A DNA stretch of 64,000 nt from positions 21,870 through 85,869 of the IMG/VR virus record IMGVR_UViG_3300037087_000150. One strand, 5' to 3'. Position numbers and translations under genes: made by a program. How positions within the stretch are numbered: position 1 is the first letter of the stretch; each line of letters opens with the position of its first letter. Shown here piece after piece: positions 5,509 to 50,110 of this stretch. Source of the stretch: a virus. The notes beneath the pieces are model-generated. The model saw only the letters and a program-made list of their open reading frames with translations, made no database searches and was not told where the DNA came from.

Positions 5509-6561
5509 TTAAACCGCATACTCAAGAATTTTTCCTGTAAAACTTTTTAATTCAATGCTATCTTCATCTTCACCGAGAATCGTTTCTGGATAAACTGGTA
5601 TTTTTCCATATTTTGTATCAACGATAAATGTTGGAATTGCATATCCACTCGTGAATCCTCTTAATCCAGATATAATTTCAATACCTTTCTTAATAGTTGA
5701 ACGGAAATGAGAAGAACCAAGAATTTTATCACACGCGTAAATATAATATGGACTGACACGAATTTTTAATAATTCGTGCATCAATTTCTTCATGGTTTCA
5801 ACATCATCATTGATCCCCTTTAATAAAACAGTTTGGCTTCTCAATGGAATACCAGCATCGGCTAATTTATTACAAGCGTCAGCACATTCTTTGGTTATTT
5901 CCAACGGATGGATGAAATGGATCGAAATATAAAGAGGGTGATACTTTTTCAACATATCACATAGTTCATCGGTAATCCTTTGTGGCATCACTACGGGAAC
6001 TTTTGTACCAATACGAATCATCTCAACATGATTTATATTCCTGACTTTTTTAAGAATATATTCTAAGCTTTCGGTTGACATTGTTAATGGATCACCACCA
6101 GATATCAAAACATCTCTTATCTCTGTATGATTTCTGATATATTCAATACTATTATCTATTTGTTGTTTTGAATAATTGGTATGTCCACCCACTACTCTTG
6201 ATCGGGTACAATAACGACAATAAGTTGAACAAAAATTTGTTACGGTAAATAACACTCTGTCTGGATATTTGTGAACTAAACAAGTTCCCTTAACACTATG
6301 TGCTTCTTCTTCCAATGGATCTTTGGATTCATCTGGAGAATAAAATCTTTCATTTATTGTGGGAATAACTGTTTTTCTTAATATGCCTGTGGCATCGTTC
6401 TTAATCAAATTAAGAAAATAAGGAGTGATCCTTAGGGGTAGGTTTGAAATATTATCAATCTTTTCTTCTTCTAACAGATCTAATTCTATTTTTAAATCTT
6501 GTAACTTCTTCACGGAGTTGGATAGTTGCCATTTCCAAGACTCCCAATCGTCTGTTTTCAT
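5509..6561 (-). CDS. kamA: Lysine 2,3-aminomutase-family radical SAM enzyme
   Basis: W-x-WQL start, HKYPDRVL, CSTYCRYCTR (CxxxCxxC), LISGGDPL, QTVLLKGIND, LRGFTSGYAIP, terminal GKIP. Confidence 0.93.
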   Translation of the reverse strand: MKTDDWESWKWQLSNSVKKLQDLKIELDLLEEEKIDNISNLPLRITPYFLNLIKNDATGILRKTVIPTINERFYSPDESKDPLEEEAHSVKGTCLVHKYPDRVLFTVTNFCSTYCRYCTRSRVVGGHTNYSKQQIDNSIEYIRNHTEIRDVLISGGDPLTMSTESLEYILKKVRNINHVEMIRIGTKVPVVMPQRITDELCDMLKKYHPLYISIHFIHPLEITKECADACNKLADAGIPLRSQTVLLKGINDDVETMKKLMHELLKIRVSPYYIYACDKILGSSHFRSTIKKGIEIISGLRGFTSGYAIPTFIVDTKYGKIPVYPETILGEDEDSIELKSFTGKILEYAV

Positions 6562-6809
6562 AATTACCTAATAATTAATTTATTATAAGGGTTTTTTCCT
6601 TTCATTATTTTTATTTTTTAAAACGATTTTAAAACGTTTTTTATATATATTACATTGAAAAATCAATTTTTTGACAGCTATTTATGTAAAAAACTGACTT
6701 CCACTTATTTACTTTATATCATACCATTAAAAATAATTGAAAATAATTAATTGATTTCAACAATTTCTTCATGATTGTGGAGAAATATAGTATGACTTAT
6801 ATTTTTTGT

Positions 6810-7262
6810 TTAAACTTTTTTATCGGTAAATTCTTTATATGTCATCACATTCTCTGTTACCTTTGAATCCAACTGAGCTCCGATCTTGGACATTTCAAGA
6901 GAATATAGTATATTTTGAACAAAACTTTTAAAAGGAATTCCCTTATGTTGTTCGTATTCTATCTCTAAATCCTTTAAATCTTTAACCAAGTGATTGATGT
7001 TTTTTCCTTTACTGAAAAATTTCGTCAACATTGGTTTATATTTCGTTGGATGTATATCTCCCTCTTGTTGTGCTATTATGTCTTTATATTTAGTTTCTAA
7101 TAAATTAAAGATTCTCTCTTTTATTTTTCTTTCACATTGGGATTTTTCTGTTCTTTGTAAACCATTATCCACAATTTCCTCTTTTTCCTCTGGATATTTT
7201 CCTTCGGGTGCTTTTCTTAGTTTGGGAACAAATTTCTCCCTGATTTTATTACGATAGTCCAT
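6810..7262 (-). CDS. Hypothetical protein ending in VMTYKEF motif
   Basis: ORF after CAATATATA box. Confidence 0.6.
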   Translation of the reverse strand: MDYRNKIREKFVPKLRKAPEGKYPEEKEEIVDNGLQRTEKSQCERKIKERIFNLLETKYKDIIAQQEGDIHPTKYKPMLTKFFSKGKNINHLVKDLKDLEIEYEQHKGIPFKSFVQNILYSLEMSKIGAQLDSKVTENVMTYKEFTDKKV

Positions 7263-7347
7263 TCAAAAATCTTTTATTTCTATATATTGATTTTATGAAT
7301 AACAAAAGTCTACTAATATATAACATTTTATCAAAATAAAAAATTAA

Positions 7348-7374
7348 AAACTATATAAACATTCGAATATATAA
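7348..7374 (+). promoter_or_regulatory. Putative phage middle promoter AAACTAT-N14-ATATAA
   Basis: Member of an 11-copy motif with an invariant 14-nt spacer. Confidence 0.55.
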
Positions 7375-7398
7375 TGATTTACAAAAGAATCCTATTAA

Positions 7399-10300
7399 TT
7401 GATGAAGGAAAAAGCTAAAACCATTGAGCAACGATATGTACATTTAGAGCAAAGGGATCAAATTTTATTAAGACCCGATACACAAATTGGAACAGTTTTA
7501 ACAGAAGATAGAAACCTATTCGTTGTTGATGATGTTAATAATATAGAAAATATAAAGATAGTAAATCGATCAGTTAAGTACAATCCGGGATTTTTCAAAA
7601 TAATTGATGAAGTGCTAACAAACGCTTCAGATCATTCCATCAGAACGGGTCAAGTTAAGAATATAAGGGTGATCGTGGAGAATGACCACATAGAAATAGA
7701 GAATGATGGTCCGGGTATTCCTGTCGTAATTCATAAAGAACAGAAATTATATGTTCCAGAAATGACATTCGGTTTACTCCAAACAAGTGAAAATTATGAT
7801 GACACCGTAAAAAGAACTTGGGGTGGAAGAAATGGAATTGGTGCTAAATTAACAAATATCTTTTCGAAAAGATTCATAGTCGAAACAGCGGATGGTAAAA
7901 ATAAATTTTATCAGGAATTCACTGATAATATGTCCAAGAAAACAAAGCCAAAAATAAGATCTCTTAAAAAGAATTACACTAAAATAACATTCTATCCTGA
8001 TTTCGAAAGATTTGGAATACAAGAAATCGATGATGAAATAAAATCAGTTATAGTAAGAAGATGTGTTGATATAGCTGTTTATTCTGGTGTGAAAGTGTTT
8101 TATAATGGTATTCAAATACCGATCAAGAATTTTAAAGATTACATGAAGATGTTCGTAGATGATACCGCTGAACTATTCACTGAGAAACTCGATGAAAATT
8201 GGGAAATCGGGGTATCCAAATCAGTTGATGGTGGTTTTAATCAAATATCAATGGTTAACGGATTATCCACAAACAGGGGTGGTACTCATGTAAATTATAT
8301 CAGTAATCAACTTACAAAATCAGCACAGGAATTATTAGCTAAGAAATATAAGAACCTGAACATAAAACCAAATGATATAAAAAACAACATCTTTCTCTTT
8401 GTTAATACAAAAGTAATAAATCCGAGTTTTGATGAACAATGGAAAGAAACATTAAACACAAAAGTAAACGGTGATGGTCCGGTATTATCTGAAAAAATTA
8501 TAAAACAATTTACCAATTCGGAAATTGTAGAAGAAGTTATCAGGTTTTTACATATCAAGGAACAAGTTGATACTAAAAAAGAAATTGGTAGACATAAAAT
8601 CAAAATTAGTAAATTAGAGGACGCTAAGAAAGCCGGTACATATGAAAGTGATAAGTGTTATCTGATGTTGTGTGAGGGTGATTCCGCTTCCAACCAAGTT
8701 ATATCTGGATTATCTGAGGTAGACAGTTCTTACTTTGGTATTTTTCCGCTTCGTGGAAAACCATTAAATGTAAGAGAAGTCAATTTAGCGAAAGTTCGTG
8801 AAAATGAAGAAATGAAAAATATTATCAATATCCTTGGTCTGGAATTCGGTAAAAAATATACTGACACATCCAAACTAAGATACGGTAAAGTTGTTTTCTT
8901 CTCTGACCAAGATGTTGACGGTGCTCACATCAAAGGATTATTGATTAATATGATTGATACTTTCTGGCCTGAATTATTAAAATTGGATTTTATTTACGAG
9001 TTCATGACACCAATCATGAAAGTCTATGATGATAAGAAATTCGTTAAATATTTTTATAGGTTAGGTGATTGGGAAAAATATCGAAAAGAAAATGATGTAG
9101 ATAAATACAATAAGAAGTATTTTAAGGGGCTGGGAACGATTGAAGATGAAGAAATGAAGGAATTCTTCAGGAATATGAAAAAACACCTTATACGATTCTA
9201 TTATGACCTCAAATCGAATACAGATGACCTTATCGATTTAGTATTCGAGAAAAAAAGGGCAGATGACAGAAAAGAGTGGATGAAAGCGTATAGTGCTACT
9301 GATTTCATAGATAAATTTACTACTAAACAAACTTATGACAAATTCATCAACAGTGAATTGATGGAATGGAGTATGGCTGATAATAACCGTATGATTCCAA
9401 ATTTAATTGATGGATTTAAACCCGTACAGAGAAAAGTACTTTATTGCTTTCATAAAAAAGGAATAAGGGGTGAAATTAAGGTAACAGCTTTAACTGGAGC
9501 CATCATGGAAAGTTTGGCTTACCATAATGGTGATGTTTCTGGTAATAAGGCAATCATCGGAATGGCTCAAAACTTTGTCGGAACAAACAACTTGAATTTA
9601 ATAATCGGTAAGGGAAACTTTGGTTCGAGATTAAAAGGGGGTGAAAACGCGGCCAGTCCAAGATACATCTTCACGAAGTTGAACGATTTAACCCCTTATA
9701 TTTTCTTAAAAGAAGATTTGGATGTTTTGGATTATCAAACTGATGATGGATCACCAATTGAACCTGTTTATTTTGTACCTATCGTTCCAATGGTTTTAAT
9801 CAATGGGGCAAGTGGTATTGGTTCTGGATATTCAACCAACATTCCAAGTTTTAATCCATCAGAAATCATCACCTATTTATCAAATAAAATAAAAGGTAAG
9901 AAGAATAACATTGAACTAAAACCTTATTATAAGGATTTCAAAGGGGAAATTGTTTTAGATACTGAGAACAGTAGATATGTTTCCAAAGGTATCATGACTA
10001 AAATTTCAGATCACATTTACGACATAACCGAACTTCCTTTATGGACTTGGAACGATTCATATTACGAATATTTGGATAAATTATCAGAAGATGAAAAAGA
10101 CAAGAATGGAAAACTGATAAGAAAAGCATATATTCGTGATTGGATAAAAAATGGTAATGATAAAGATGTCAAAATTAAAATATATCTTCAAAGAGATGTT
10201 CCACCAGAATTCATAGCTAATATCTGGAAAAATCTAAAAATGGAAACTTATATTTCATATAGTAATATGTATCTTTTTGATGAACACAGACAATTAAAAA

Positions 10301-10702: not shown

Positions 10703-10945
10703 ATGTGGTCAGAAACGGGAATTGGAACTGGAACATTCTGGAAGGATCATTTTTATTGTCCTATTTGTGATAAGAATGGAAATATCGAAGTAATGGAAAT
10801 TGAATTTATAAAAGAAAATTACAATGAAAAACACAATAAATGCCATAATTGTAATTCCCTATTAAAAGATACCCAACTTTTAACATATGAAGAACATATA
10901 AATAACGAAAGAAATAAAAAATTAAATGAAATATTATGGGACTGA
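10703..10945 (+). CDS. Small Zn-ribbon protein with C-terminal INxxRxxKLxxIL tag
   Basis: CPIC...CHNC; ends INNERNKKLNEILWD. Confidence 0.7.
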   Translation: MWSETGIGTGTFWKDHFYCPICDKNGNIEVMEIEFIKENYNEKHNKCHNCNSLLKDTQLLTYEEHINNERNKKLNEILWD

Positions 10946-11172
10946 CAGATTTTACAATCCCCACTGAAATGATAGGAACAACATCAACATATTTAAAATG
11001 GTTCGAAGATAGTCACTGTCCTAAATGTGGGTCGAATGACGGAATGTATTTCGATGAAAATAATAATGAATGTAAACAATGCCATTGGAAAGGAGAAGTG
11101 TCAGACTTATTAGACGATGAAGAATATATAAATAAAACAAGATCAGAAAAATTAAAGGAAATTTTAAAATGA
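10936..11172 (+). CDS. Small Zn-ribbon protein with C-terminal tag
   Basis: CPKC...CKQCHWKG; ends INKTRSEKLKEILK. Confidence 0.7.
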   Translation: MGLTDFTIPTEMIGTTSTYLKWFEDSHCPKCGSNDGMYFDENNNECKQCHWKGEVSDLLDDEEYINKTRSEKLKEILK

Positions 11173-11396
11173 CAGAAAAATGGACAAGTGATTTGATCAC
11201 CTTTCTCAATGATAGTTCATCATTAAAATATTGTCCGAAATGTGGATATGGAGCGGAAAAAATAAGAGGTTATCACTTAACCATAGGTAATAAATGTGAA
11301 AGGTGTGATTGGAGCGGAAAATTTTCAGATTTATTAAATTACGAACAAATGATAAATAAAACAAGATCAGAAAAATTAAAAGAAATATTATTATGA
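11169..11396 (+). CDS. Small Zn-ribbon protein with C-terminal tag
   Basis: CPKC...CERCDWSG; ends INKTRSEKLKEILL. Confidence 0.7.
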   Translation: MTEKWTSDLITFLNDSSSLKYCPKCGYGAEKIRGYHLTIGNKCERCDWSGKFSDLLNYEQMINKTRSEKLKEILL

Positions 11397-11890
11397 TAAT
11401 AAACAAGGAATCAAGAAAAAAATTAATAGATGAATATTATCATAAGGAAGAAGAAATATTTTTGAGGACATTGGATCTTACAGATAATGAAATAAAAAAA
11501 ATAACTCAAACACCAATAAATTATGACACTAATGAATATAAAGATTTTTCTATTGGACATCTTAAAGAAGATTTGAAAGATTTTGTTACTGATGAATATT
11601 ATAAAACTGGTGGAATTGACTTTGATTCCGATATGGCTTTAGAATTGTTATATGATAAAGAATATATGTTATATGAAAAGATTAATAATCACATAACAGA
11701 AGAAAATCATAAAATTTTTGTTGATGATATAAAAATAATTTTTGGTGTTTTTTCTGATTCTGATTATCCTCTTTCAATATGCTATTTTGAAAAAGATAAT
11801 ACTATTTGTTCTATGAAAAGTAGATACAATTACATGGAACATTTTATTAATTTTAATAGAAGTAAAAAATTAAAAGATATACTATCATGA
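11393..11890 (+). CDS. Hypothetical protein with C-terminal tag
   Basis: ends INFNRSKKLKDILS. Confidence 0.65.
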   Translation: MIINKESRKKLIDEYYHKEEEIFLRTLDLTDNEIKKITQTPINYDTNEYKDFSIGHLKEDLKDFVTDEYYKTGGIDFDSDMALELLYDKEYMLYEKINNHITEENHKIFVDDIKIIFGVFSDSDYPLSICYFEKDNTICSMKSRYNYMEHFINFNRSKKLKDILS

Positions 11891-12165
11891 AACCATTTAA
11901 CTTAGAAGAACATTTAGATTGGCTAAAATTTATCGATGGAAAACAAGAATATGACACTTCTTCAGTGGGTCAATATCAAGGATTGGTTTGTCCTGAATGT
12001 GGAAGCGAAAAAATATATCATCATAATAGGGGTGGAGGTGATGAAAAATCATGGTTTGAATGTGAAAAATGCCATTATATGAATAATGGAGATGTGAAAA
12101 ATATCCCGACTTATGAAGAATATATAAATAAAACGAGATCCGAAAAATTAGGAGATATATTATGA
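11887..12165 (+). CDS. Small Zn-ribbon protein with C-terminal tag
   Basis: CPEC...CEKC; ends INKTRSEKLGDIL. Confidence 0.7.
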   Translation: MKPFNLEEHLDWLKFIDGKQEYDTSSVGQYQGLVCPECGSEKIYHHNRGGGDEKSWFECEKCHYMNNGDVKNIPTYEEYINKTRSEKLGDIL

Positions 12166-12617
12166 CAAAAACTGGAAATCATTGTCCATCAGGTGTACCG
12201 GGAGTATCGGGTGCTGCTGGTTTTCCGGCCAATAGTGATTATTGGATTAAAGAAATCAATGGTGATTATTGGGTTAATGATTTAATTAAAGAAATTAACG
12301 AAAATGGAAAGTCGAGTAATAAATATACACAATCCAAACATATAATAAATGGAGAAGAATATATTTTTTATTCTGGGGGATCAGCAAAAATAACCACTTT
12401 GAATGGTGTTATCGAATCAATAGATGATAATCCGGCTGTGGAATATGGTGAATTTGTAAAATATTGGTTCAAGAATAATAAACTTCATAGAGAACATCAT
12501 CCAGCTATAATTACAAGTGGTGGAGTAAAAATGTATTTTTTGAATGATATTGAATTTACAGAAGAAGAATTCATTAATGATGACAGAAATAAAAAGTTAA
12601 AAGATATATTATGTTAA
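12162..12617 (+). CDS. Protein with PA(V/I)E...W..NNKLHR repeat and C-terminal tag
   Basis: DNPAVEY..YWFKNNKLHREHHPAII beta-hairpin repeat; ends INDDRNKKLKDILC. Confidence 0.65.
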   Translation: MTKTGNHCPSGVPGVSGAAGFPANSDYWIKEINGDYWVNDLIKEINENGKSSNKYTQSKHIINGEEYIFYSGGSAKITTLNGVIESIDDNPAVEYGEFVKYWFKNNKLHREHHPAIITSGGVKMYFLNDIEFTEEEFINDDRNKKLKDILC

Positions 12618-13156
12618 CAGCTAAAGAAAAAAGTTATGTCATCTGTAAAGATGAGCTAATAACATTTTACCCCCCTTTAAATTGTCCTGAATGTAATTCT
12701 GACCAAGTTCATCCTTTCTACGCCACGAGTTTCTCTTATTGTAATTCTTGTAATTGGGAAGGACATAATGAAGATCTTATATGTAATCATATCTATTCCG
12801 AAATAGAATTGAAGATGATGGAATGGAAAAAAAAGTTTTACCCCGAATATCATAAAAGAATTTTAGAAAATATTGATAAAAATTATCATCACGGTAATCA
12901 TTTCTCACCAGCAACAAGTCAATGGTTTAAATTTGGTGATAAATATAAAAATAATAATCAATGTTTTTATTGTCCTAACTGTGGATCAAATCATGGTCGT
13001 ATGATGATTTATATGAATATATATGAATGGGCTGAATGTTTAGGTTGTGGTTGGAAAGGTAATAATGAAGATTTATTCGAATCGAATGAAGAATATATCA
13101 ATAGTAATAGAAGTAAAAAATTAAAAGAAATATTATATGATAAAAACACCGTTTAA
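12611..13156 (+). CDS. Double Zn-ribbon protein with C-terminal tag
   Basis: Two CPxC...CxxCxWxGxxEDL units; ends INSNRSKKLKEIL. Confidence 0.7.
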   Translation: MLTAKEKSYVICKDELITFYPPLNCPECNSDQVHPFYATSFSYCNSCNWEGHNEDLICNHIYSEIELKMMEWKKKFYPEYHKRILENIDKNYHHGNHFSPATSQWFKFGDKYKNNNQCFYCPNCGSNHGRMMIYMNIYEWAECLGCGWKGNNEDLFESNEEYINSNRSKKLKEILYDKNTV

Positions 13157-42983: not shown

Positions 42984-44234
42984 ATGGCAAAACAACCGAC
43001 AAAACCTTCTAAGCCTTCAAATGAATTTGGGTTTTCAAAAATTTCAAGTGTTATAGACAATTTATCAAAAAAGTCAATGATTATCGTTGACAACATGAAT
43101 GAAGAAAGATCATACATTAGTACTGATGTATATACCTTAAACGCTTTATTATCCAAAAGTATTCTTCACGGTGGAATTCCTAAAAACAGAATTACAATTC
43201 TAGCTGGAGAATATTCCACAGGAAAAAGCTATATTTGTTATAATATAATGAGAAATGCCCAGAAAGAGGGTTATAAAATATTATTTTTAGATACTGAATA
43301 TTCAATTGATAGAGTTGATTTCGAATCATTCGGAGTTGATGTTTCTGATTCGGATAAATTCCAATTAATTCGTTGTTCACGAATTGAAAATGTAAAAATA
43401 GCCTTAGTTCAAATTATAGATGCTTTAATAGATTTGAAGGAACAAGGTGTAGATGTTAGTAAAACATTAATTATTATTGATAGTTTGGGTCAATTACATT
43501 CTGGTAAAGAAAAAGAAGATGCACTGAAAGGTGAAACAAAAACAGATATGACAAGAGCCAAAATTATCAAATCAATGCTTCGTCTTATTACTAATGATTT
43601 GGGGTATTTGAATATTCCATTGGTGGCAACAAACCATGTATACCTCACACAAGATTTATTTCCTCAAACAAAACAAAGTGGTGGTGAAGCTACTAATTAC
43701 ACACCTTCTATTGTTGTTTATTTATCAGCTTCCAAGGTTGAAGATAAAGATAAAGATGAATTATCCCTTGGATCATCAGGTATTCTTGTAACTGCAAGAG
43801 CCCGTAAAAATCGTATAGCCAAACCAAAGAAAATCAAATTTAGTATTGATCCCGATTCTGGTTGTAATCGTTACGAGGGATTAGACTTTTTTTGTACACC
43901 TGAAAATTTCGAAAAAGTTGGTATCGCTCAAGTAAAACAAGTCGTAGATAAGAAAACTGGTGAAGTAACATATGAATCAGCTGGAACAAAAGCCCGTTGG
44001 TATGTTAAACATCTTGATAAATATCTTTATGAAAAGAATCTTTATAATGGAAGTGTTTTTACCAAAGATGTATTAGAAGCATTAGAACCAATAATTTATG
44101 AATATTTCAGATATTCTTCATATGAAGAAAAACAGAAAATTGAAGAAGAAATGAACAAATTATACTCTCAATTTGAAGAAGATCCAGAACTCGAAATCGA
44201 CAGTGATGGTATGGATGATACTTTATTGAAATAA
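42984..44234 (+). CDS. uvsX: RecA/UvsX-like recombinase
   Basis: GGIPKNRITILAGEYSTGKS, LDTE, IIDSLG, DMTRAK, TNHVY, SGG. Confidence 0.92.
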   Translation: MAKQPTKPSKPSNEFGFSKISSVIDNLSKKSMIIVDNMNEERSYISTDVYTLNALLSKSILHGGIPKNRITILAGEYSTGKSYICYNIMRNAQKEGYKILFLDTEYSIDRVDFESFGVDVSDSDKFQLIRCSRIENVKIALVQIIDALIDLKEQGVDVSKTLIIIDSLGQLHSGKEKEDALKGETKTDMTRAKIIKSMLRLITNDLGYLNIPLVATNHVYLTQDLFPQTKQSGGEATNYTPSIVVYLSASKVEDKDKDELSLGSSGILVTARARKNRIAKPKKIKFSIDPDSGCNRYEGLDFFCTPENFEKVGIAQVKQVVDKKTGEVTYESAGTKARWYVKHLDKYLYEKNLYNGSVFTKDVLEALEPIIYEYFRYSSYEEKQKIEEEMNKLYSQFEEDPELEIDSDGMDDTLLK

Positions 44235-44251
44235 AAAAATAATTAAAAAAT

Positions 44252-44515
44252 ATGTTAAGAATTAGAATTATTAATCCAGAACAATTTAAAACACCAGAAA
44301 AAGAAAAAGATATTCCTCAAGCTACATGGTATTCCAGAATGAAATCGTATGATTGGGATGTAAACATGGGAATGGATGAGGATATTAAAAATTGTACCGT
44401 TGGTCATCAACTCGATTCTATTGAATTGGACAGCATTTATTTAAGTACACGAAAAAATGTTCAAGATTTTATTGACTTTTTGACGAACGCGAAAGAATCT
44501 TTTCCAGAAAAATAA
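44252..44515 (+). CDS. Hypothetical protein
   Basis: ORF in operon. Confidence 0.5.
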   Translation: MLRIRIINPEQFKTPEKEKDIPQATWYSRMKSYDWDVNMGMDEDIKNCTVGHQLDSIELDSIYLSTRKNVQDFIDFLTNAKESFPEK

Positions 44516-44527
44516 TAATTCAAAAAT

Positions 44528-44824
44528 ATGAGAAAACTAATTATTAGAGTGTTTTATATTATGGTTGGTGGTTTATCCAGACAACAAGCTGAAGAGCAAA
44601 TGTATGAATTGATGCAAGAGTATCATCCAAATTTACCCGATGATTTAAACGAAGATTATCATATTGAAGATATTTGGCTCCCAATAACACAAGGTCAAAG
44701 TAAAGTGGAAGTTATTTATCCATCTAAATTAGAAATTGAAGATTTAGATTTAGAAAATGTAAATAAATTGATAGAGAAATTAAATGAAATAAAAACCAGA
44801 TTAGCTAATAATTCTAATTCTTAA
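44528..44824 (+). CDS. Mini protein resembling the T4 gp20 portal clip domain
   Basis: RVFYIMVGGLSRQQAEEQMYELM...IEDIWLP resembles gp20 [23 protein letters not shown]...TEDYWL (recalled). Confidence 0.6.
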   Translation: MRKLIIRVFYIMVGGLSRQQAEEQMYELMQEYHPNLPDDLNEDYHIEDIWLPITQGQSKVEVIYPSKLEIEDLDLENVNKLIEKLNEIKTRLANNSNS

Positions 44825-44886
44825 TAATTTTAACAATTATTAAACTTAACAATTTATCTTTTATATATAAAGATAAAAATAATACT

Positions 44887-45792
44887 ATGAAAACAGCTAA
44901 AACTTATTCAATTGAAGAAGGAATCTATCAAACATTCGATAAATTAATAACAAAATTAAATATAAATAGAAGTTCCTTTTTTGAGGAAAAAATATTAGAA
45001 TTCATAAAAGAGAATTCATCGAAAGTAGAATTGAAAGAGAATAAAATTTTAACGATTAAAAATCTTTCAAATCATTTTTATACAATAAAATCTACTGTAA
45101 CAGAAAAAGTTGAGGTATTATATGTAGAAATGGATAAAAATTTTTCTCGTTCAAAAGAAACACCAACTGGAAATTTGACAAGTGAAGAAAAACAGTTAAT
45201 CGTGTCTTTATTGAAAGATATTAATACAATTGGATCAAAATCAAAAAAAGAAGTAGAAAATATATTAGAAAAAATTTCCGATAAAACTACCCTTATACCG
45301 GCTGATGTTTTTACAAGAACTGGATTAATTGGAACAATTAGTACAAAAATAGATCCAAGTAAATCAGTATCAGAAATTATAAAAGAAATGTTAGATGAAG
45401 CTTTTGTATCTAAGGTTAAAGAACTTGGAGAAAGAAATCAAAAGAAGATGGGAATCTGTGATGCAATTAATTATAAAGATATAGATGGTGGAAATATAAT
45501 TTCAAGTTTGACGGGTGGAGTGGATTTTTGTATCGGTAATTCAAAAACCCTAAATAAAGTTGATTGGTTAGATCGTTATCTTTTAATTAATGAGAATTTA
45601 GAAAATGATATTATCATTTTTGGTAAAAAAACAGAAGTAGACAAACCGGGAGTCGTTGCTATAATTCAAGTAGATGAAAATGATAATATAATTTATAATG
45701 TGGAAAATAATGAATTGAATTTAAAAGCAAATATGTTCGATATAGGATTTTTTCCAGAAAAATGTTATTTTACAGCAAAATTAATAAACTGA
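44887..45792 (+). CDS. Protein with RHH-like N-terminus and gp23 capsid-like C-terminal half
   Basis: KTYSIEE...INRSSFFEEKI; GVDFCIGN...NDIIIFGKK....PGV...GFFPEKCYFT. Confidence 0.45.
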   Translation: MKTAKTYSIEEGIYQTFDKLITKLNINRSSFFEEKILEFIKENSSKVELKENKILTIKNLSNHFYTIKSTVTEKVEVLYVEMDKNFSRSKETPTGNLTSEEKQLIVSLLKDINTIGSKSKKEVENILEKISDKTTLIPADVFTRTGLIGTISTKIDPSKSVSEIIKEMLDEAFVSKVKELGERNQKKMGICDAINYKDIDGGNIISSLTGGVDFCIGNSKTLNKVDWLDRYLLINENLENDIIIFGKKTEVDKPGVVAIIQVDENDNIIYNVENNELNLKANMFDIGFFPEKCYFTAKLIN

Positions 45793-45795
45793 AAT

Positions 45796-45987
45796 ATGGA
45801 ACAATATGAAATTAAGAAACAATCGGATGAAATAAGAGAAAAATTACGATTGTTTGATAAGAAGAAAAAGCGTGAGAGAGAAGATATTATAGACGAATGG
45901 GAAGAATTACAAAGAAAATGTAAACACCCAAATCTTCAAGGAAAACACGAAGGATATTGTCCAGATTGTGGTTACACATTCGGATAA
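45796..45987 (+). CDS. Small coiled-coil/Zn-finger protein
   Basis: CKH...CPDCG. Confidence 0.55.
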   Translation: MEQYEIKKQSDEIREKLRLFDKKKKREREDIIDEWEELQRKCKHPNLQGKHEGYCPDCGYTFG

Positions 45988-46001
45988 AATATATTATAGT
46001 T

Positions 46002-46265
46002 ATGGATTATTTATCAATGATTTACCTCCGTTCACTTATAAAATGTGAACAATTAAAATCTATGGATGTCATAGGTCATTATGACATTGAAATCAAAAAA
46101 CAGGATGAAAGATTATGTCTTGATGATGGTGTTACTGAATTCGATGTTGTAATGGATATTAAACTTCAACCGAAAAAAACTATACAATATATAGAGATGC
46201 CCATCACGATAACAAAAAGTGGAACAATTTTAGGTGATGATAAGGCTCTCCCAGAGAGTAAATAA
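46002..46265 (+). CDS. Mini protein resembling tail sheath (gp18) C-terminal domain
   Basis: EFDVVMDIKLQPKKTIQYIEMPITITKSG resembles gp18 EFVATFYIQPARSINYITLNFVATATG (recalled). Confidence 0.55.
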   Translation: MDYLSMIYLRSLIKCEQLKSMDVIGHYDIEIKKQDERLCLDDGVTEFDVVMDIKLQPKKTIQYIEMPITITKSGTILGDDKALPESK

Positions 46266-46279
46266 AACAATACTAAAAC

Positions 46280-47386
46280 ATGGTAAACGAAAAATTAAAA
46301 TTCGATTTTGATGACTTGCTCATTCAACCAATATCTCAAAGCCTTATTTCTTCAAGAAAAGAAGTAACTGTTTTTGATGGAACTCATATGTTACCTCTAT
46401 TTACAGCCCCAATGGATACTGTGGTTGATATGAAAAATATAGAAATATTTAGTGAAAATAAAATATATTCCATTGTTCCGAGAACTTATGATAGACCACC
46501 AGAAAATAATCAATGGAAAGCTATTGGATTAAAAGAGTTCGAACATTTTTATATCAATAATGATATTTGTGATTTATTCTCAGTTGACCCCGAAAAGGCG
46601 AAACTAACCATGAATCATAAAATATTAATTGATATTGCTAACGGACATATGGAAAAACTGGTACATCTTATTAAAAAAGCCAAAGAAAAATACGGGAACA
46701 AATTAACTCTTATGGTTGGTAATGTGGCTAATCCTTCCACCTATTTTGAATTATCAAAGGCCGGTGCCGATTACATTAGAGTAGGAATTGGAAACGGTGG
46801 TGGATGTTTAACGAGTCAACAGGTTGGAGTTGGGTATCCTTTAGCTTCTTTGATTTATGAGATCTATCAGGAAAGAAATATCAGATCTGATATGAAACCT
46901 AATGATTGTGCAAAAATAGTGGCTGATGGTGGTATGAAAAATTATTCAGATATTATTAAGGCCTTGGCTTTGGGTGCAAATTATGTGATGATTGGGAGTA
47001 TTTTTAATAGGGCTTTAGAAAGTGCTGGAGAGACCTACGGTGCTAATATTCACCACGAAACATGGTTAGAACCCGGTGAAAAAGTTGATCAATACTCAGA
47101 GGGAGTGAAAAACGCCTTTAAAAATGGGGCTAAATTTTATAAGAAATTCAGAGGGATGTCAACCAAGGGAGTTCAGAAACTTCTGGGTAACGATAATTTA
47201 AAAACATCTGAGGGTGTAACCAGAATGAATCCAGTAGAATATACCATAGAGGGATGGACGGAGAATTTTAAACATTATTTAGCCTCTGCGATGTCTTATA
47301 CGGGGACTTCTACCTTAAATGAGTTCATTGGTAAGGTTGACCTCAATCTGATAACACAGAGTAGCTTTAATCGATTTAACAAATAA
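46280..47386 (+). CDS. IMP dehydrogenase / GMP reductase family protein
   Basis: FDDLLIQP, APMDTV, DIANGH, RVGIGNGGGCLT, ADGG, FRGMST, SAMSYTG. Confidence 0.9.
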   Translation: MVNEKLKFDFDDLLIQPISQSLISSRKEVTVFDGTHMLPLFTAPMDTVVDMKNIEIFSENKIYSIVPRTYDRPPENNQWKAIGLKEFEHFYINNDICDLFSVDPEKAKLTMNHKILIDIANGHMEKLVHLIKKAKEKYGNKLTLMVGNVANPSTYFELSKAGADYIRVGIGNGGGCLTSQQVGVGYPLASLIYEIYQERNIRSDMKPNDCAKIVADGGMKNYSDIIKALALGANYVMIGSIFNRALESAGETYGANIHHETWLEPGEKVDQYSEGVKNAFKNGAKFYKKFRGMSTKGVQKLLGNDNLKTSEGVTRMNPVEYTIEGWTENFKHYLASAMSYTGTSTLNEFIGKVDLNLITQSSFNRFNK

Positions 47387-47391
47387 GTAAT

Positions 47392-47628
47392 ATGGAAAGT
47401 AAAAAACAAAAAGAAATTGAAAATAGTTTAAGTTCTGAATTAAATAATATGATTACGGAACTTGAACTTGGACATTTATCAAAGGAATCAATAATTGGGT
47501 ATTTCACGGAATTTCTATTAGATGCCAAAGTAGATTCTGAAATTATTGTAAATGTTTTAGAACGAGATCAATTTGGTGATTTAGGAAAAGAACAAGCAAG
47601 ATACATAAAAGTAGAAGAAGGATGGTAA
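47392..47628 (+). CDS. Hypothetical protein
   Basis: ORF in operon. Confidence 0.5.
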   Translation: MESKKQKEIENSLSSELNNMITELELGHLSKESIIGYFTEFLLDAKVDSEIIVNVLERDQFGDLGKEQARYIKVEEGW

Positions 47629-47629
47629 T

Positions 47630-48379
47630 ATGAGTGAGAAATACATACCGAAATATTTGTCAGAAGATATCGACCATAATGTGAAAGATACTCCGACTGT
47701 TAAAAAATTTCAAACCAACGGAAAAATGGCCTCTTATTTACAGGATATTTATGAATATGTTCATAATTTAGATAAAACAACATTATTAACATCATCAACA
47801 AAACCATATAAAATGGGAGCACTAAAAGGAATTGACATTTATGTTGACCCTTATATGAGATGGAATGATGATCGAATAATATTCTTTGACGAAAACGATA
47901 ATATAGTAAATGAAGTTGTATTTGAAATGAATTTGTACGAAGAAAAAAGTACAAACGAAGAAAGGTCAAACAGATTAAAAATGTTATTGGATGATGATGT
48001 TGAAGAAACAAACAAATTCATGGAAGAAGGGAAAAGATTGGAAGAACTAAAACGAAAAGCGAATTTAGATAAAATATTCAGAGAATTTGTTTTCAATCTT
48101 CTCGAAACACATCCAGAAATTAAAAAAATAAAAGTATGTCCAGAAGGATGTTCTAAATTAGATTTATATGAACTTCGTAAAGATAGAAATAATTCCGAGA
48201 TAACTACAATCTCTTTTAAGATTGGATGGTTTAAAGGTGAAGTAGTAGCGGAATATGATAAAAAAATATTCAATGATAAATTGATTCTTTATTGTGATAA
48301 TACAAAAATTACAGATGAAATTTTATTCTTGGATGAAAATGATAATGAGATTTATAAAACAAATATGAGGTTGATATGA
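47630..48379 (+). CDS. Protein with major-capsid-like segments and internal RxxxLxxLL tags
   Basis: FQTNGKMASYLQD...MGALKGIDIYVDPYMRWNDDRII; second degenerate copy; TNEERSNRLKMLL. Confidence 0.5.
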   Translation: MSEKYIPKYLSEDIDHNVKDTPTVKKFQTNGKMASYLQDIYEYVHNLDKTTLLTSSTKPYKMGALKGIDIYVDPYMRWNDDRIIFFDENDNIVNEVVFEMNLYEEKSTNEERSNRLKMLLDDDVEETNKFMEEGKRLEELKRKANLDKIFREFVFNLLETHPEIKKIKVCPEGCSKLDLYELRKDRNNSEITTISFKIGWFKGEVVAEYDKKIFNDKLILYCDNTKITDEILFLDENDNEIYKTNMRLI

Positions 48380-48731
48380 AAAAAGAAAAAGACACAAAGG
48401 AATTTAAAGACTTTATGAAAACAATAAAGGAAGATGGATTACAATGTAGAATAAATAAGAACATTAAAAAATATGAAAAATATCATGGAGTTGATAAAAT
48501 ATGGTTTCAATTTCATTAATATTTATAAAACAAATATGAGTTCAATATGATAAAAAAGAATAATGAAAACACTCTTAATTGGGAGATCGTTGAAAAAATA
48601 TTACAATTACAGGGGAATTTGGATTCTGATTTCCAAATAGAAATGGGATTACAAGAAAATGTTGGTATGAGTATGTGGCTAACCAACGTAAAGATATTGG
48701 GTGAAAAACCTAAAAAAGAATAACAATATGA

Positions 48732-50081
48732 ATGAACGAAAAAGAAACGATGAATGTTCAAATGGAGAAATTCTTCTTCACTTGGGTATATGAACATCCA
48801 ACACAATTTTTCAAGGTCGAACCAGAATATTTTAAAAATGATGAAATTCGTTTTATCTATAAAATAGTCAGAGATGAATATGTAGTATCAAAAAAAGTTT
48901 CATCACCACAACAAATTGTGGCAATGATTAAACTACATGATCCTGAAGAAAAAATCAACAATAATGTCATTAAAGTCATTCTCAAAAACAGTAATGAATC
49001 ACACGATCAAGAATGGTTAGAAAGACATTTTAAAGCTTGGAAGTTATCAAATATTCTGAAAACCAAAACATATCAGACAATTGATGAAATCCGAAATTTA
49101 AAAGAAATTGACTACAAAAATGTATCTGATGTAGCCTCCAAAATAAAACAAATTTTCGGAAACATATCTCTCATGGAAGAGGATGAAGAAAATTTGGGTG
49201 TAGATTTTGATGATCCAGAAAGTCATAAACAGGAAACGAGTACCAATAAAATTCCGAGTGGATGGGGGAATGTTGATACCATTTTACAAGGAGGTTGGGA
49301 CAAATCCACTTTCAATGTTCTTATGGGAGAAACCAATATTGGGAAATCAATGTGGTTGGATAATGTGGCTAAGAACGCGGCGGATAATGGATTTAATGTG
49401 GCTTTCATCACAGTGGAAATGCACTGGAGAAAAGTTATGAAACGTCTTGGTGCAATGCGTCTTAAAATTGATATTGACCAATACAACGAATTGAGTAAGG
49501 ATTCCACCTTTATCAAAACAAAAATAAATCAATTAAAAAATACTTCAAATTTAGGATTATTTAATTCTGGAAATCCGGGAAAAATATTTGTCATGAAATA
49601 TGACACTGGAGCTTGTACCATATCTGATATAGATAATTATCTAACCAGATTAGAGGAAGTAAAGAAAATAAAAATTGATATGTGTGTTGTTGACTACATA
49701 AATCTTATGTCAGTTGACAAACTAAATAGAGAAATTGGAAATAACTTATATCTTAAAGGAAAACATTTAGCTGAAGGACTTCGTTATTTAGCTGATAAAT
49801 TTGATATGGCCGTTGTTACAGCCACTCAAACAGATAAAGCTGTTTGGGGAGCAAATGATGTTAAACTACAAGATATTCCCGAAAGTAAAGCCGTAGCTGA
49901 AACAGCGGATAGTGTTTGGGCAATCATTAGAAATAATGATATGAGAAGGGATAATAAATATCGTCTTAAAATCTTAAAACTTCGTGATGGTGAACACAAA
50001 GGACAATTGATTAAATTCGATTTCAATCCTCGATACTTGACCATAGAAAACGATGTTCTTGAGGGAATTGGTAAAATATAA
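48732..50081 (+). CDS. Replicative DnaB-like helicase (T4 gp41-like)
   Basis: GETNIGKS, FITVEM, VVDYINLM, VTATQT, ESKAVAETAD, KLRDG. Confidence 0.93.
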   Translation: MNEKETMNVQMEKFFFTWVYEHPTQFFKVEPEYFKNDEIRFIYKIVRDEYVVSKKVSSPQQIVAMIKLHDPEEKINNNVIKVILKNSNESHDQEWLERHFKAWKLSNILKTKTYQTIDEIRNLKEIDYKNVSDVASKIKQIFGNISLMEEDEENLGVDFDDPESHKQETSTNKIPSGWGNVDTILQGGWDKSTFNVLMGETNIGKSMWLDNVAKNAADNGFNVAFITVEMHWRKVMKRLGAMRLKIDIDQYNELSKDSTFIKTKINQLKNTSNLGLFNSGNPGKIFVMKYDTGACTISDIDNYLTRLEEVKKIKIDMCVVDYINLMSVDKLNREIGNNLYLKGKHLAEGLRYLADKFDMAVVTATQTDKAVWGANDVKLQDIPESKAVAETADSVWAIIRNNDMRRDNKYRLKILKLRDGEHKGQLIKFDFNPRYLTIENDVLEGIGKI

Positions 50082-50086
50082 CAACG

Positions 50087-50110
50087 AAAGGGGATTAAAT
50101 TCCCCTTTTT
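50087..50110 (+). terminator. Intrinsic terminator
   Basis: AAAGGGGA-TTAAAT-TCCCCTTTTT. Confidence 0.75.

Follow-up and report, generated by a model that had tools for sequence, protein, structure and literature searches.

Gene content of the locus

The window (the whole 64,000-nucleotide stretch analysed) is part of an 85.9-kb fragment from a giant peat-soil phage, a roughly 0.7-Mb megaphage related to LR756501, with a G+C content of about 30%, a composition at which random frames close quickly. The locus is a plus-strand gene array with intergenic gaps of -4 to 62 nt, starting with a UvsX/RecA-like recombinase gene (42984..44234; phrog_97 UvsX-like, E 6.8e-51; Pfam RecA, E 8.2e-14) and ending with a DnaB-like replicative helicase gene (48732..50081; PF03796, E 2.4e-23; phrog_19, E 1.3e-59). 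Between these lie, in order, an 87-aa ORF of no assigned function (44252..44515), ORF A (44528..44824), ORF B (44887..45792), a 63-aa ORF with a CxxC..CxxC zinc-ribbon-like end (45796..45987; weak Pfam zinc-ribbon, E 0.04-0.6) that is not a virion look-alike, ORF D (46002..46265), an IMPDH/GMP-reductase-family gene (46280..47386; PF00478, E 2.8e-40; phrog_9582, E 1.2e-55), a 78-aa ORF with no significant Pfam or PHROG family (47392..47628) and ORF G (47630..48379). The 87-aa ORF, which had no match in a Pfam scan, is conserved beside ORF A, a 64% identical homologue lying immediately 5' of an ORF A homologue at another metagenome locus (L121).

A first-pass annotation of the window had read ORFs A, B, D and G as a cluster of intact miniature portal, capsid and tail-sheath genes set among replication genes, and three of the four look-alikes (A, B and G) are real. 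All four are intact table-11 ORFs; reading TAG as glutamine changes none of them, and the sole effect of code 4 is to fuse ORF B with the next small ORF. When a relative's portal, major capsid protein (MCP) and sheath were searched by tblastn against the whole 85.9-kb contig, the only matches at E <0.01 were A, B and G, all inside 3.4 kb, so that the clustering also stands. No full-length virion gene is present on the 85.9-kb contig, and since the phage's own portal, MCP and terminase lie outside it, every comparison below was made with relatives.

The first strong terminator-like hairpin after uvsX follows dnaB (50086..50109, plus strand; a 9-bp stem with 4 GC pairs, then a T run), and the plus strand from 42984 to 50081 has no terminator-like site except a weak 5-pair one at 47114-47130, inside the IMPDH-like gene. 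The placement of A, B and G in a replication and recombination array without a strong terminator thus fits expression before the late genes, and the three ORFs, a variable island in this array, probably share its transcription, ahead of the late virion genes or uncoupled from them, to judge solely from gene spacing and the lack of terminators. The middle-type promoter motifs proposed earlier found no support, a sigma-70 scan giving 64 sites against 62.3 expected.

ORF D (87 aa) had been taken for the C-terminus of a gp18-type sheath. We rejected this assignment because the pairwise similarity to sheath reached only E 0.044 across 27 residues, hhalign against sheath gave a probability of 0.2% and none of its 5 matches among 1.84 billion proteins was a sheath. 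Its best PHROG match was phrog_10581 (E 0.38), its only homologues were two weak and small ones (P0018 and P0020), and it had no counterpart in LR756501; we regard it as a small protein of no assigned function.

A stand-alone portal clip

ORF A encodes 98 aa that make up a stand-alone portal clip domain and one stem helix (a 'mini-clip'), as first proposed from its likeness to T4 gp20. It matches Pfam Portal_T4 (PF07230) above the cut-off (E 5.3e-6; 25.9 bits, cut-off 22.9; profile positions 206-271 of 433) and the portal family phrog_213 (E 2.9e-5), and BLASTP aligns its residues 5-88 with residues 277-372 of the 608-aa LR756501 portal (E 8e-15; 34/96 identical). Compared with T4 gp20 (PDB 3JA7, 9LU6), to whose clip and following stem helix it is homologous, ORF A has 98 aa instead of about 520-610, is without the wing, crown, tunnel loop and first stem helix, has a clip loop about 10 residues shorter than in portals and is a separate gene among replication genes. 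Its AF2 model (pLDDT 78) is a compact alpha/beta unit for which a comparison with structures returned no significant portal match (T4 gp20, 9lu6, at rank 21 with Z 2.8 and rmsd 7.3).

The sequence database holds five homologues of ORF A (64-71% identity, 80-105 aa), leaving out an exact copy and one truncated call, and the family extends to 14 small ORFs (99-120 aa) among 80 metagenome loci, one of which is cut at its 5' end (L162) and another a duplicate (L135, of L134). Of the 12 members whose 5' end is intact, 11 begin at the first strand of the clip or just ahead of it and carry the strand motif M-x-K-x-L-I-I there; in the twelfth, L124, the ATG sits 10-12 residues later, at the GGLSRQQAE motif. 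Among the five closest members, NG86 dN/dS was 0.11-0.44 in all 10 pairs, and of 45 pairs in total 44 stayed below 1; these values are rough because dS is near saturation (0.6-2.4).

Residues G15, R18, Q19, Q20 and A21 are invariant in the six-member family alignment, and in the metagenome set of 14 some members differ at G15, R18 or A21. The best-conserved core of the family, the GGLSRQQAE motif, aligns to the clip tip of T4 gp20, N291-K296, residues that have been named as contacts to the packaging ATPase gp17 in a T4 portal whose clip is described as the docking site for both gp17 and the neck protein gp13 (PMC4493910). On our reading of this alignment, the best-conserved motif of ORF A would thus fall on the terminase-contact residues of T4; the shortened loop could mean that partner binding differs.

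The gene order uvsX-A-dnaB is retained at locus L122, where the island contains ORF A alone, and in LR756501 the uvsX orthologue adjoins dnaB directly, the island being missing; B and G are therefore dispensable. At five more distant loci of the family, Pfam matches were obtained for 7 of the 10 flanking ORFs scanned (Rad50/SMC, Cpn60, ClpB-type AAA+, DNA polymerase B, DUF7487, Dam methylase and ThyA), none of the seven belonging to a virion family.

A pre-late position of ORF A would also suit a clip piece that retains a host-directed activity of the portal, for instance on stringent-response enzymes, and supplies it before portals are made. In T7, alarmone synthesis is suppressed by the portal protein Gp8, which binds RelA and SpoT; portals of other coliphages are described as having related features (PMC13483052). 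The section headings of that report indicate electrostatic surfaces on the assembled ring of the portal, its accessible part connects neither the clip nor T4-type portals with this activity, and the MCP pieces would be left unaccounted for; we consider this explanation highly unlikely.

Capsid-derived segments in ORFs B and G

ORF B (301 aa) joins a ribbon-helix-helix (RHH)-like N-terminus, an uncharacterised middle and an MCP-derived C-terminus. The RHH-like segment (44890..45018; Pfam RHH_1, E 0.021, below cut-off) matches a 134-aa ORF of LR756501 by tblastn (E 2.2e-7; L007, 1378-1782, minus strand) and is missing from both ORF B homologues as called. The C-terminal segment (aa 227-301; 45565..45789), which corresponds to the final ~70 residues of the MCP, aligns over residues 227-299 with residues 528-600 of a relative's MCP (BLASTP, E 3e-5) and with the MCP profile in hhalign (82.6%, E 9.7e-6), and it was recovered at E 0.004 when the MCP was searched by tblastn against the whole contig. 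The MCP-like end is the best-conserved part of ORF B across its two homologues (P0015, 53%, and P0016, 42% identity; query coverage 81%).

ORF G (249 aa) comprises an MCP-derived module, a tag-like peptide, a long helical hairpin and a second, diverged copy of the module. Module 1 (aa 29-98; 47714..47923) matches the MCP by BLASTP (residues 29-90 against MCP 486-547; E 1e-12; 27/62 identical, 44%), and hhalign of the ORF G family profile against the MCP C-terminal profile gave 98.6% (E 7.3e-16). Module 2 (about aa 154-249; 48089..48376) was recognized as a diverged repeat when the C-terminal half was aligned with the protein's own N-terminal module (hhalign, 95%, E 3.6e-8, 79 columns); compared directly with the MCP, it has no hhalign match left (0.1%). 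Five homologues of ORF G were found (56-65% identity, 57-100% query coverage). Its AF2 model (pLDDT 71) had no Foldseek match at E<=0.001, and its weak matches are enriched in HK97-fold capsid proteins (P1 9ukm; T4 7vrt/1yue/5vf3). The capsid resemblance claimed for both ORFs is thus confirmed against the MCP of the phage's own clade and not by Pfam.

The internal peptide of ORF G, NEERSNRLKMLL (47954..47989, plus strand), is a copy of a tag that seven ORFs at 10703-13156 carry at the C-terminus. A regular expression for this tag, widened by two conservative substitutions so as to include ORF G, matched 8 of 367 contig ORFs, seven of them at 0-6 residues from the C-terminus and the eighth at the internal ORF G site, and gave 0 matches in 200 shuffles.

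Judged by sequence, the pieces copied appear to be the portal clip with its following stem helix in ORF A and the C-terminal strands of a gp23-type MCP, present once in ORF B and twice in ORF G. Like T4 gp24 and other full-length MCP paralogues, B and G are copies of a gp23-type capsid gene within the same genome and evolve independently, and gp23/gp24 structures appear among the weak fold matches of ORF G. As a virion protein, gp24 has the entire HK97 fold; what B and G retain is a stretch of only about 60-75 residues from the C-terminus, which G carries in two copies together with a helical hairpin and a peptide tag, and which in B is linked to an RHH-like domain.

A, B and G could instead be genuine minor components of assembly or of the virion, specialised paralogues and not inhibitors, that help to build a very large capsid and portal vertex, for example as chaperones capping unassembled MCP or portal subunits or as accessory proteins at special lattice positions. 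Structural roles are established for head-protein paralogues; gp24, which arose from gp23, is one, and its structure 1yue is among the ORF G matches. The tag that ORF G has in common with seven other proteins would suit such a role, as would the DPYGEE(N)W tag of LR756501, which occurs 109 times in that genome and is found on at least four MCP/sheath pieces and one portal piece; such tags could target proteins into the prohead. Giant phages are rich in duplication, splitting and truncation of head-gene paralogues, and abundant gene splitting, duplication and recombination is stressed for them (PMC5694885). The same source describes a prohead-protease paralogue of SPN3US that is diverged, truncated and presumably inactive, a head-morphogenesis paralogue kept in a giant phage; it differs in its parent protein and is described as a possible remnant, and the accessible part of that account gives neither a family-wide selection analysis nor an interface logic. 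Against a structural role, all neighbourhoods examined consist of replication, nucleotide metabolism or chaperone genes and never of virion modules, the pieces are too small for an HK97 or portal fold, and dispensability of B and G fits it poorly; we think it improbable.

Virion-protein pieces in related phages

The complete genome of LR756501 encodes the intact 608-aa portal and full-length MCP and sheath genes, together with at least 14 pieces from these three virion proteins: four portal-derived small ORFs (an ORF A-family gene of 99 aa with E 1.9e-35, two other ORFs made of portal pieces and one of a crown piece), nine MCP-derived and one sheath-derived. A portal gene likewise accompanies a 139-aa clip ORF on the IMG/VR contig G002. 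Because full-length genes coexist with the pieces in a complete relative, the pieces are not the parts of split structural genes.

The abundance of such fragments could also reflect illegitimate recombination or gene conversion that scatters conserved late-gene pieces into hyperplastic regions, where they would stay within open frames by chance and without function. In LR756501, one ORF carries portal pieces in permuted order (L213, 1309-1830) and some fragments sit behind a same-frame stop codon; clip pieces arose more than once, and the island itself is variable between relatives. Neutral by-products or decaying fragments would hardly give what is seen for A, B and G: each is kept open throughout its length in relatives at 42-71% amino-acid identity and about 30% G+C, the starts of the clip family (intact 5' end) coincide with the domain boundary, its rough dN/dS values are mostly 0.1-0.4, and the virion-derived end is the best-conserved part of B. 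For these three ORFs the neutral explanation is largely refuted, and we hold it to be very improbable.

A 63-nt patch of ORF A (44564..44626, plus strand) recurs almost unchanged in a portal gene of full length from the same peat metagenome and is a candidate gene-conversion tract. A contig from run X12 fits ORF A only in this patch (61/63 identical; differences 44594 G>C and 44596 G>A), beyond which its loose ends on either side read in translation as a full portal; the contig has a depth of 3.9 of 8.1. At 81 other portal loci, only 36-54 of the 63 nt agree with the patch. The near-identity fits a copy kept matched to its parent portal; the patch could instead derive from a co-resident strain, or could be neutral gene conversion.

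Possible function

A parent-like look would be expected of immune decoys, mini-proteins that display portal and capsid epitopes read by host pattern-recognition defences and, being made early, occupy or mislead the sensors without the oligomerisation that triggers them. This was the main reading of the first-pass annotation, which had proposed saturation of Avs-, CapRel- or Lit-type sensors or, failing that, poisoning of the assembly of competing phages. The likely pre-late position, the conserved exposed clip tip and the near-identical portal patch all fit, and the pieces of LR756501 resemble an epitope panel. The premise is documented on the host side, where the binding target of SpbK is the clip domain of YonE, the portal of SPbeta (PMC11984713), and Avs families bind portal, MCP and other core virion folds (PMC13581612). 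Unlike A, B and G, both are host sensors, and Nip, the counter-defence of the SpbK system, is described as acting on SpbK and not as a portal mimic (PMC11984713). A fragment that binds a sensor could equally trigger it, and an Avs figure legend mentions activation measured with truncated targets (PMC13581612). No phage-encoded fragment decoy was found in the literature searched. In T4, Lit is triggered by the N-terminal Gol region of gp23, whereas the MCP pieces kept here are C-terminal, a point against a decoy for Lit. On balance we regard decoys as unlikely.

Our best reading, put forward tentatively, is that selection maintains A, B and G as small genes built from parts of the phage's own virion proteins that form surfaces or interfaces, and that they act by interface mimicry, the most likely mechanism, in which each mini-protein would bind whatever partner its parent segment naturally contacts. 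For ORF A the large terminase is predicted to be this partner, or else the neck, both of which dock on the clip tip. It counts against this mechanism that the MCP pieces do not obviously fold as autonomous units and that the predicted model of ORF A is without a significant portal match. Small TerL-binding packaging blockers have a precedent in PLE Gpi, which engages the large terminase of ICP1 and stops packaging (bioRxiv 10.1101/2024.04.22.590561). The same is proposed for ORF A, whose binding is predicted, so that the likeness is one of proposed mechanism only; Gpi is encoded by a satellite and not by a phage, and no portal homology is reported for it in the accessible part of that study. 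Through such partner binding, A, B and G may restrain, time or block the assembly of heads and the packaging of DNA, whether in the phage itself or in co-infecting relatives and satellites.

A variable accessory island within a replication array

The window spans bases 21870-85869 of an IMG/VR contig of 85,869 bases (G+C ~30%; CheckV completeness 14%). This source contig is a piece of a megaphage of ~0.7 Mb, since exact copies of both ORF A (44528-44824, + strand) and ORF G (47630-48379, + strand) occur on a single 736,551-base contig in the protein collection. Its closest database relatives are the uncultured 735-kb phages LR756501/LR756503 (69% nucleotide identity across uvsX and dnaB); next come other phages of 460-640 kb and the Lak Prevotella phages. 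Twelve ORFs run on the + strand from uvsX (42984-44234) to dnaB (48732-50081) with gaps of -4 to 62 nt, and the first strong + strand terminator-like hairpin (50086-50109) lies just 3' of dnaB. A scan for sigma-70 promoters gave sites at chance level. The gene content between uvsX and dnaB varies among relatives: in LR756501 dnaB directly follows uvsX with no island between them, in metagenome locus L122 an ORF A homologue is the sole intervening ORF, in locus L121 an 87-aa ORF adjoins the ORF A homologue, and homologues of A and B, or of B and G, are carried together on contigs of 6,698 and 51,707 bp respectively. The segment 44252-48723 is therefore an accessory island of variable content set in a conserved replication/recombination array, with ORF A as the member most stably retained. 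At least 59% of the sampled words of this island were present in 12 peat metagenome runs, seven of which are non-source runs from seven 2020 studies (possibly one campaign); contigs from three of these seven covered the island without differences of their own.

The island also holds an IMPDH/GMP-reductase-family gene (46280-47386). Exact contigs from metatranscriptome run X15 fell only on 46975-47125, in this gene, and on 48405-48582, over tiny ORFs before dnaB (depth 18.4), with DNA carry-over possible; the lack of an exact X15 contig on A, B or G in this single run has no bearing on their expression. Reading TAG as glutamine altered no island ORF, and the sole effect of code 4 was to fuse ORF B (44887-45792, + strand) to the 63-aa ORF that follows; nothing calls for either code. 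The island reads cleanly in the standard code, unlike the TAG-recoded Lak-A1 portal frame (L019, MK250015 221324-222619), whose six in-frame TAG codons are expected from known recoding. In L122, a 37-kb relative, the dnaB match (6303-9969) is split into residues 5-214 and 206-445 some 2.3 kb apart, which may represent an intein, intron or homing-endonuclease insertion.

ORF A is a stand-alone portal clip

The resemblance of ORF A to the clip of the T4 portal gp20, proposed in the first-pass annotation, was upheld. The 98-aa product scored 25.9 bits against Pfam Portal_T4 (PF07230; cut-off 22.9, E 5.3e-6), also matched a PHROG portal family, and aligned over residues 5-88 with residues 277-372 of the 608-aa LR756501 portal (BLASTP E 8e-15, 35% identity), one loop being ~10 residues shorter in ORF A. 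It covers positions 206-271 of the 433 in PF07230, short of a full portal with wing, stem, clip and crown (~500-600 aa), and is a portal domain fragment rather than a complete portal. The T4 gp20 study (PMC4493910) describes the clip (residues 279-358) as connecting two stem helices and as the place where the packaging ATPase gp17 and the neck protein gp13 attach, with gp17 contacting N291, M292, R295 and K296 at the clip tip. When the LR756501 portal is aligned with gp20, these four residues map to G-L-x-x-Q-Q of GGL(S/T)RQQAE, the core that is best conserved in the ORF A family, where G15, R18, Q19, Q20 and A21 are invariant in a six-member alignment. The AF2 model of ORF A (pLDDT 78) runs strand-helix-strand-strand and closes with a long helix at the C-terminus; Foldseek returned nothing at E<=0.001 and placed T4 gp20 (9lu6_l) at rank 21 (Z 2.8, rmsd 7.3, 83 aligned). 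Complex prediction with four ORF A copies gave no answer (score 0.01), which speaks neither for nor against, and PDB sequence searches with the A, G and B family profiles found nothing relevant.

The phage's own portal, sought with a 30-nt stretch, had 0 matches in viral and metagenome contigs, and it was not among the 81 portal loci examined; a related-locus search with ORF A alone gave one locus, L187, a portal. A split portal gene is ruled out because LR756501 and the IMG/VR contig G002 carry an intact portal in addition to the small ORFs.

Five homologues of ORF A were present in the sequence database (80-105 aa, 64-71% identity). A profile scan of JGI metagenomes gave 80 loci, 66 with the match in a portal-sized frame (at about residue 275-290; some frames clipped by contig ends) and 14 with the match in a small frame. 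Ten of these 14 mini-ORFs are complete (99-120 aa) and four are clipped by contig ends, the set including L160 and the near-identical pair L195/L198 (both cases cut at the 3' end), the 5'-cut L162 and the near-duplicates L134/L135. Mini-ORFs with an intact 5' end (n=12) start at or shortly before the first clip strand, 11 of them with M-x-K-x-L-I-I; the ATG of L124 lies at the GGLSRQQAE motif. Nei-Gojobori dN/dS, computed for the ORF A family with stop-containing codons skipped (the L120 frame ran beyond its stop), was 0.11-0.44 for the 10 pairs that the five closest members form, and 44 of 45 family pairs had a value below 1, although the ratios are rough because dS was 0.6-2.4. At five more distant loci of such small stand-alone clip genes ('mini-clips'), seven of the 10 flanking ORFs scanned had a Pfam match (Rad50/SMC-type ATPase, Cpn60, ClpB-type AAA+ with a LAGLIDADG insert, DNA polymerase B, DUF7487, Dam methylase and thymidylate synthase), with no virion protein among these seven. 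ORF A belongs to a gene family and is not debris. The ClpB-type AAA+ protein that adjoins the mini-clip gene in L124 (1088 aa; 6885-10151, - strand) contains a LAGLIDADG domain, a probable intein.

ORFs G and B carry end-modules of the major capsid protein

The gp23-like segments reported earlier in B and G were recovered by BLASTP and hhalign against the major capsid protein (MCP) of LR756501, though not by Pfam, in which neither ORF matched Gp23 (PF07068) at E<=1. This parent protein is a gp23-type MCP (PF07068, E 1.9e-25; T4 gp23 structures, E 5e-5), and the matches of both ORFs are confined to about residues 486-600 of its 608; the matched stretches, 56-77 residues long, do not amount to a complete HK97 fold. 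Residues 29-90 of ORF G aligned with MCP residues 486-547 (BLASTP E 1e-12, 44% identity), the G family profile matched the MCP profile (hhalign 98.6%, E 7.3e-16), and the C-terminal half of ORF G is a diverged repeat of the MCP-derived module (hhalign 95%, E 3.6e-8). Its AF2 model contains one strand/helix order twice, linked by a long helical hairpin, and the Foldseek matches of this model were weak and partial, with P1 and T4 capsid proteins on top (E 0.06-1, 79-121 columns) and none reaching E 0.001. A related-locus search with the G family found only a full-length MCP.

The last ~75 residues of ORF B matched MCP residues 528-600 (BLASTP E 3e-5; hhalign 82.6%, E 9.7e-6), and this MCP-like end is the best conserved part among ORF B homologues. 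The N-terminus scored 15.2 bits against Pfam RHH (PF01402; cut-off 20.5, E 0.021); this RHH-like part has a relative in LR756501, a separate 134-aa ORF, and is missing in both ORF B homologues as called. Homologues numbered five for ORF G (56-65% identity) and two for ORF B (42-53%). A paralogous relationship between B and G was rejected, only a short DENDN turn being common to them (hhalign 0.6-2.4%), and the two ORFs copy mostly different MCP stretches.

ORF D shows no link to the tail sheath

The assignment of ORF D (46002-46265, + strand) to the C-terminus of the gp18 sheath did not survive: no sequence or profile test linked the two. Comparisons with sheath proteins, including the contractile sheath family PF17482, were all non-significant (phrog_10581, E 0.38; pairwise E 0.044; hhalign 0.2%), there was no match in LR756501, and none of the five ORF D matches among 1.84 billion proteins was a sheath. 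As a positive control, a 146-aa ORF of LR756501 matched PF17482 at E 9.1e-8, and so represents the sheath C-terminal domain. The ORF D family is tiny, consisting of proteins of 65-87 aa (P0018, P0020) with DGV.E.D...PKK..Y in common.

Pieces of virion proteins in LR756501 and other huge phages

Besides its intact portal, LR756501 has a 99-aa ORF A-family gene elsewhere in the genome (E 1.9e-35), a 95-aa ORF corresponding to the portal C-terminal region (PF07230, E 9e-6) and a 173-aa ORF (L213, 1309-1830) of permuted portal segments with an internal DPYGEENW. The last has a 139-aa orthologue in G002 (L206, 1411-1830), the order in both being an N-terminal piece, the clip piece and then the piece that precedes the clip in the portal. 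Both permuted ORFs lie 3' of a 321-aa gene that is FEN/RNase H-like by eye. LR756501 further contains seven or eight small ORFs with nine partial MCP matches between them, the segments spanning residues 19 to 591; one 196-aa frame carries two of these matches and some frames are broken by a stop codon. Several of the LR756501 pieces cluster at 540-566 kb. The other three LR-series huge phages have fewer, with one or two partial MCP matches each, and the three MCP matches of Lak-A1 apparently represent parts of its only MCP gene. Two of five large IMG/VR contigs have an extra clip-like ORF in addition to the portal.

Peptide tags

Immediately after its first module, ORF G carries NEERSNRLKMLL (47954-47989), a copy of the pattern IN..R(S/N).KL(K/N).IL that ends seven consecutive small ORFs at 10703-13156, several with zinc-ribbon motifs. 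This pattern occurs in eight of the 367 contig ORFs, as against 0 in 200 shuffles, and its sole internal occurrence is that in ORF G. The 735-kb genome of LR756501 holds 109 occurrences of another coding motif, DPYGEE(N/D)W (43 forward, 66 reverse), with 0 in a reversed-pattern control and 0 in four other records (this contig and three huge phages). In most cases it lies at the C-terminal end of small proteins or close to it (e.g. L010 504-2879, L033, L030 and L213), and the LR756501 carriers of DPYGEE(N)W include one portal piece and at least four pieces of MCP or sheath. These tags suggest that the small proteins could be assembly or virion parts, an explanation that we regard as unlikely.

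A conversion-like patch in ORF A

One contig from peat run X12 fits ORF A solely at 44564-44626, where 61 of 63 positions are identical and the two differences change E23 to Q; the translated flanks resemble a full-length portal, and the depth of the X12 contig (3.9 of 8.1) is the same as that of the ORF A contig. Against the 81 other portal loci, the 63-nt patch has 36-54 identical positions. M25, E27 and Q30 are common to ORF A and the X12 portal and occur together in no other portal or family member examined, with single shared residues recurring elsewhere (E in LR756501, M in L166/L068, Q in L123). This suggests a possible recent gene conversion between the portal gene and ORF A.

The fit of contigs from runs X8 and X10 to ORF G is limited to 33 nt (47840-47872, at the YVDPYMRWNDD motif), with both flanks different, and that of an X8 contig to ORF B is limited to 35 nt (45659-45693). 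Further capsid-like genes of the same community have short near-exact patches in common with the mini-genes.

What the pieces may do

The analysis shows interface-bearing pieces of virion proteins exapted as separate genes and placed among putative pre-late genes. Chance and split genes are excluded, as is neutral decay for A, B and G, and a neutral scatter of pieces, to which the stop-broken frames in LR756501 might otherwise be referred, is very unlikely. We tentatively favour, well short of certainty, a reading in which the small proteins would mimic virion interfaces and so act on assembly and packaging, because the clip piece retains exactly the terminase/neck-docking tip, because the pieces stay close to their parent proteins and because a small terminase-binding packaging blocker has a precedent in the satellite protein PLE Gpi. 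The likeness of ORF A to PLE Gpi (bioRxiv 10.1101/2024.04.22.590561) concerns the proposed mechanism only. The cognate large terminase lies outside this contig.

The first-pass annotation had instead proposed mainly immune decoys against sensors of virion proteins. Real sensors of the clip and MCP folds do exist, according to PMC11984713 (SpbK) and PMC13581612 (Avs), but a fragment might equally trigger such a sensor, and we think this role improbable. No anti-defence decoy family of virion-protein sensors was defined in the literature searched, and in a survey of 224 jumbo-phage genomes the word 'decoy' is absent and the passages on 'paralog' do not concern virion genes. Moonlighting directed at the host, for which PMC13483052 on T7 Gp8 offers a comparison, has very little probability.

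A broader reading that joins these observations is rather doubtful: megaphages would deploy, before their virion genes, a self-mimicry repertoire of small genes for virion-protein pieces, namely portal clip, crown, scrambled portal, nine or more MCP segments and the C-domain of the sheath. Many of these would be joined to a peptide tag used throughout the genome (DPYGEE(N)W in LR756501, IN..R..KL..IL in this phage), and gene conversion would keep at least one matched to its parent gene. The repertoire would pre-occupy host pattern-recognition immunity or titrate free subunits. If real, which we consider improbable, such a system would be previously undescribed, serving either immune pre-occupation or an assembly checkpoint that senses subunits.

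Duplicated virion genes are already known, but no conserved stand-alone genes for a single interface piece were found in the literature searched, whose full texts describe neither clip nor MCP-end genes of a stand-alone kind; the nearest published case is the truncated protease paralogue of SPN3US (PMC5694885). The free portal clip that retains the terminase-docking tip and the tandem MCP end-modules are the present examples. Annotation pipelines may wrongly label such pieces as portal or capsid genes. If they were decoys, they would be the first phage counter-measure against sensors of conserved virion folds; under either this or interface mimicry, virion-protein pieces may account for many of the small ORFs that are labelled 'hypothetical' in huge phages. 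If the pieces bind the partners of the interfaces that they carry, they would offer minimal reagents of natural origin for work on the portal-terminase-neck junction and on capsomer contacts, and would add a new level of control, or of competition between viruses, to the biology of the largest phages known.
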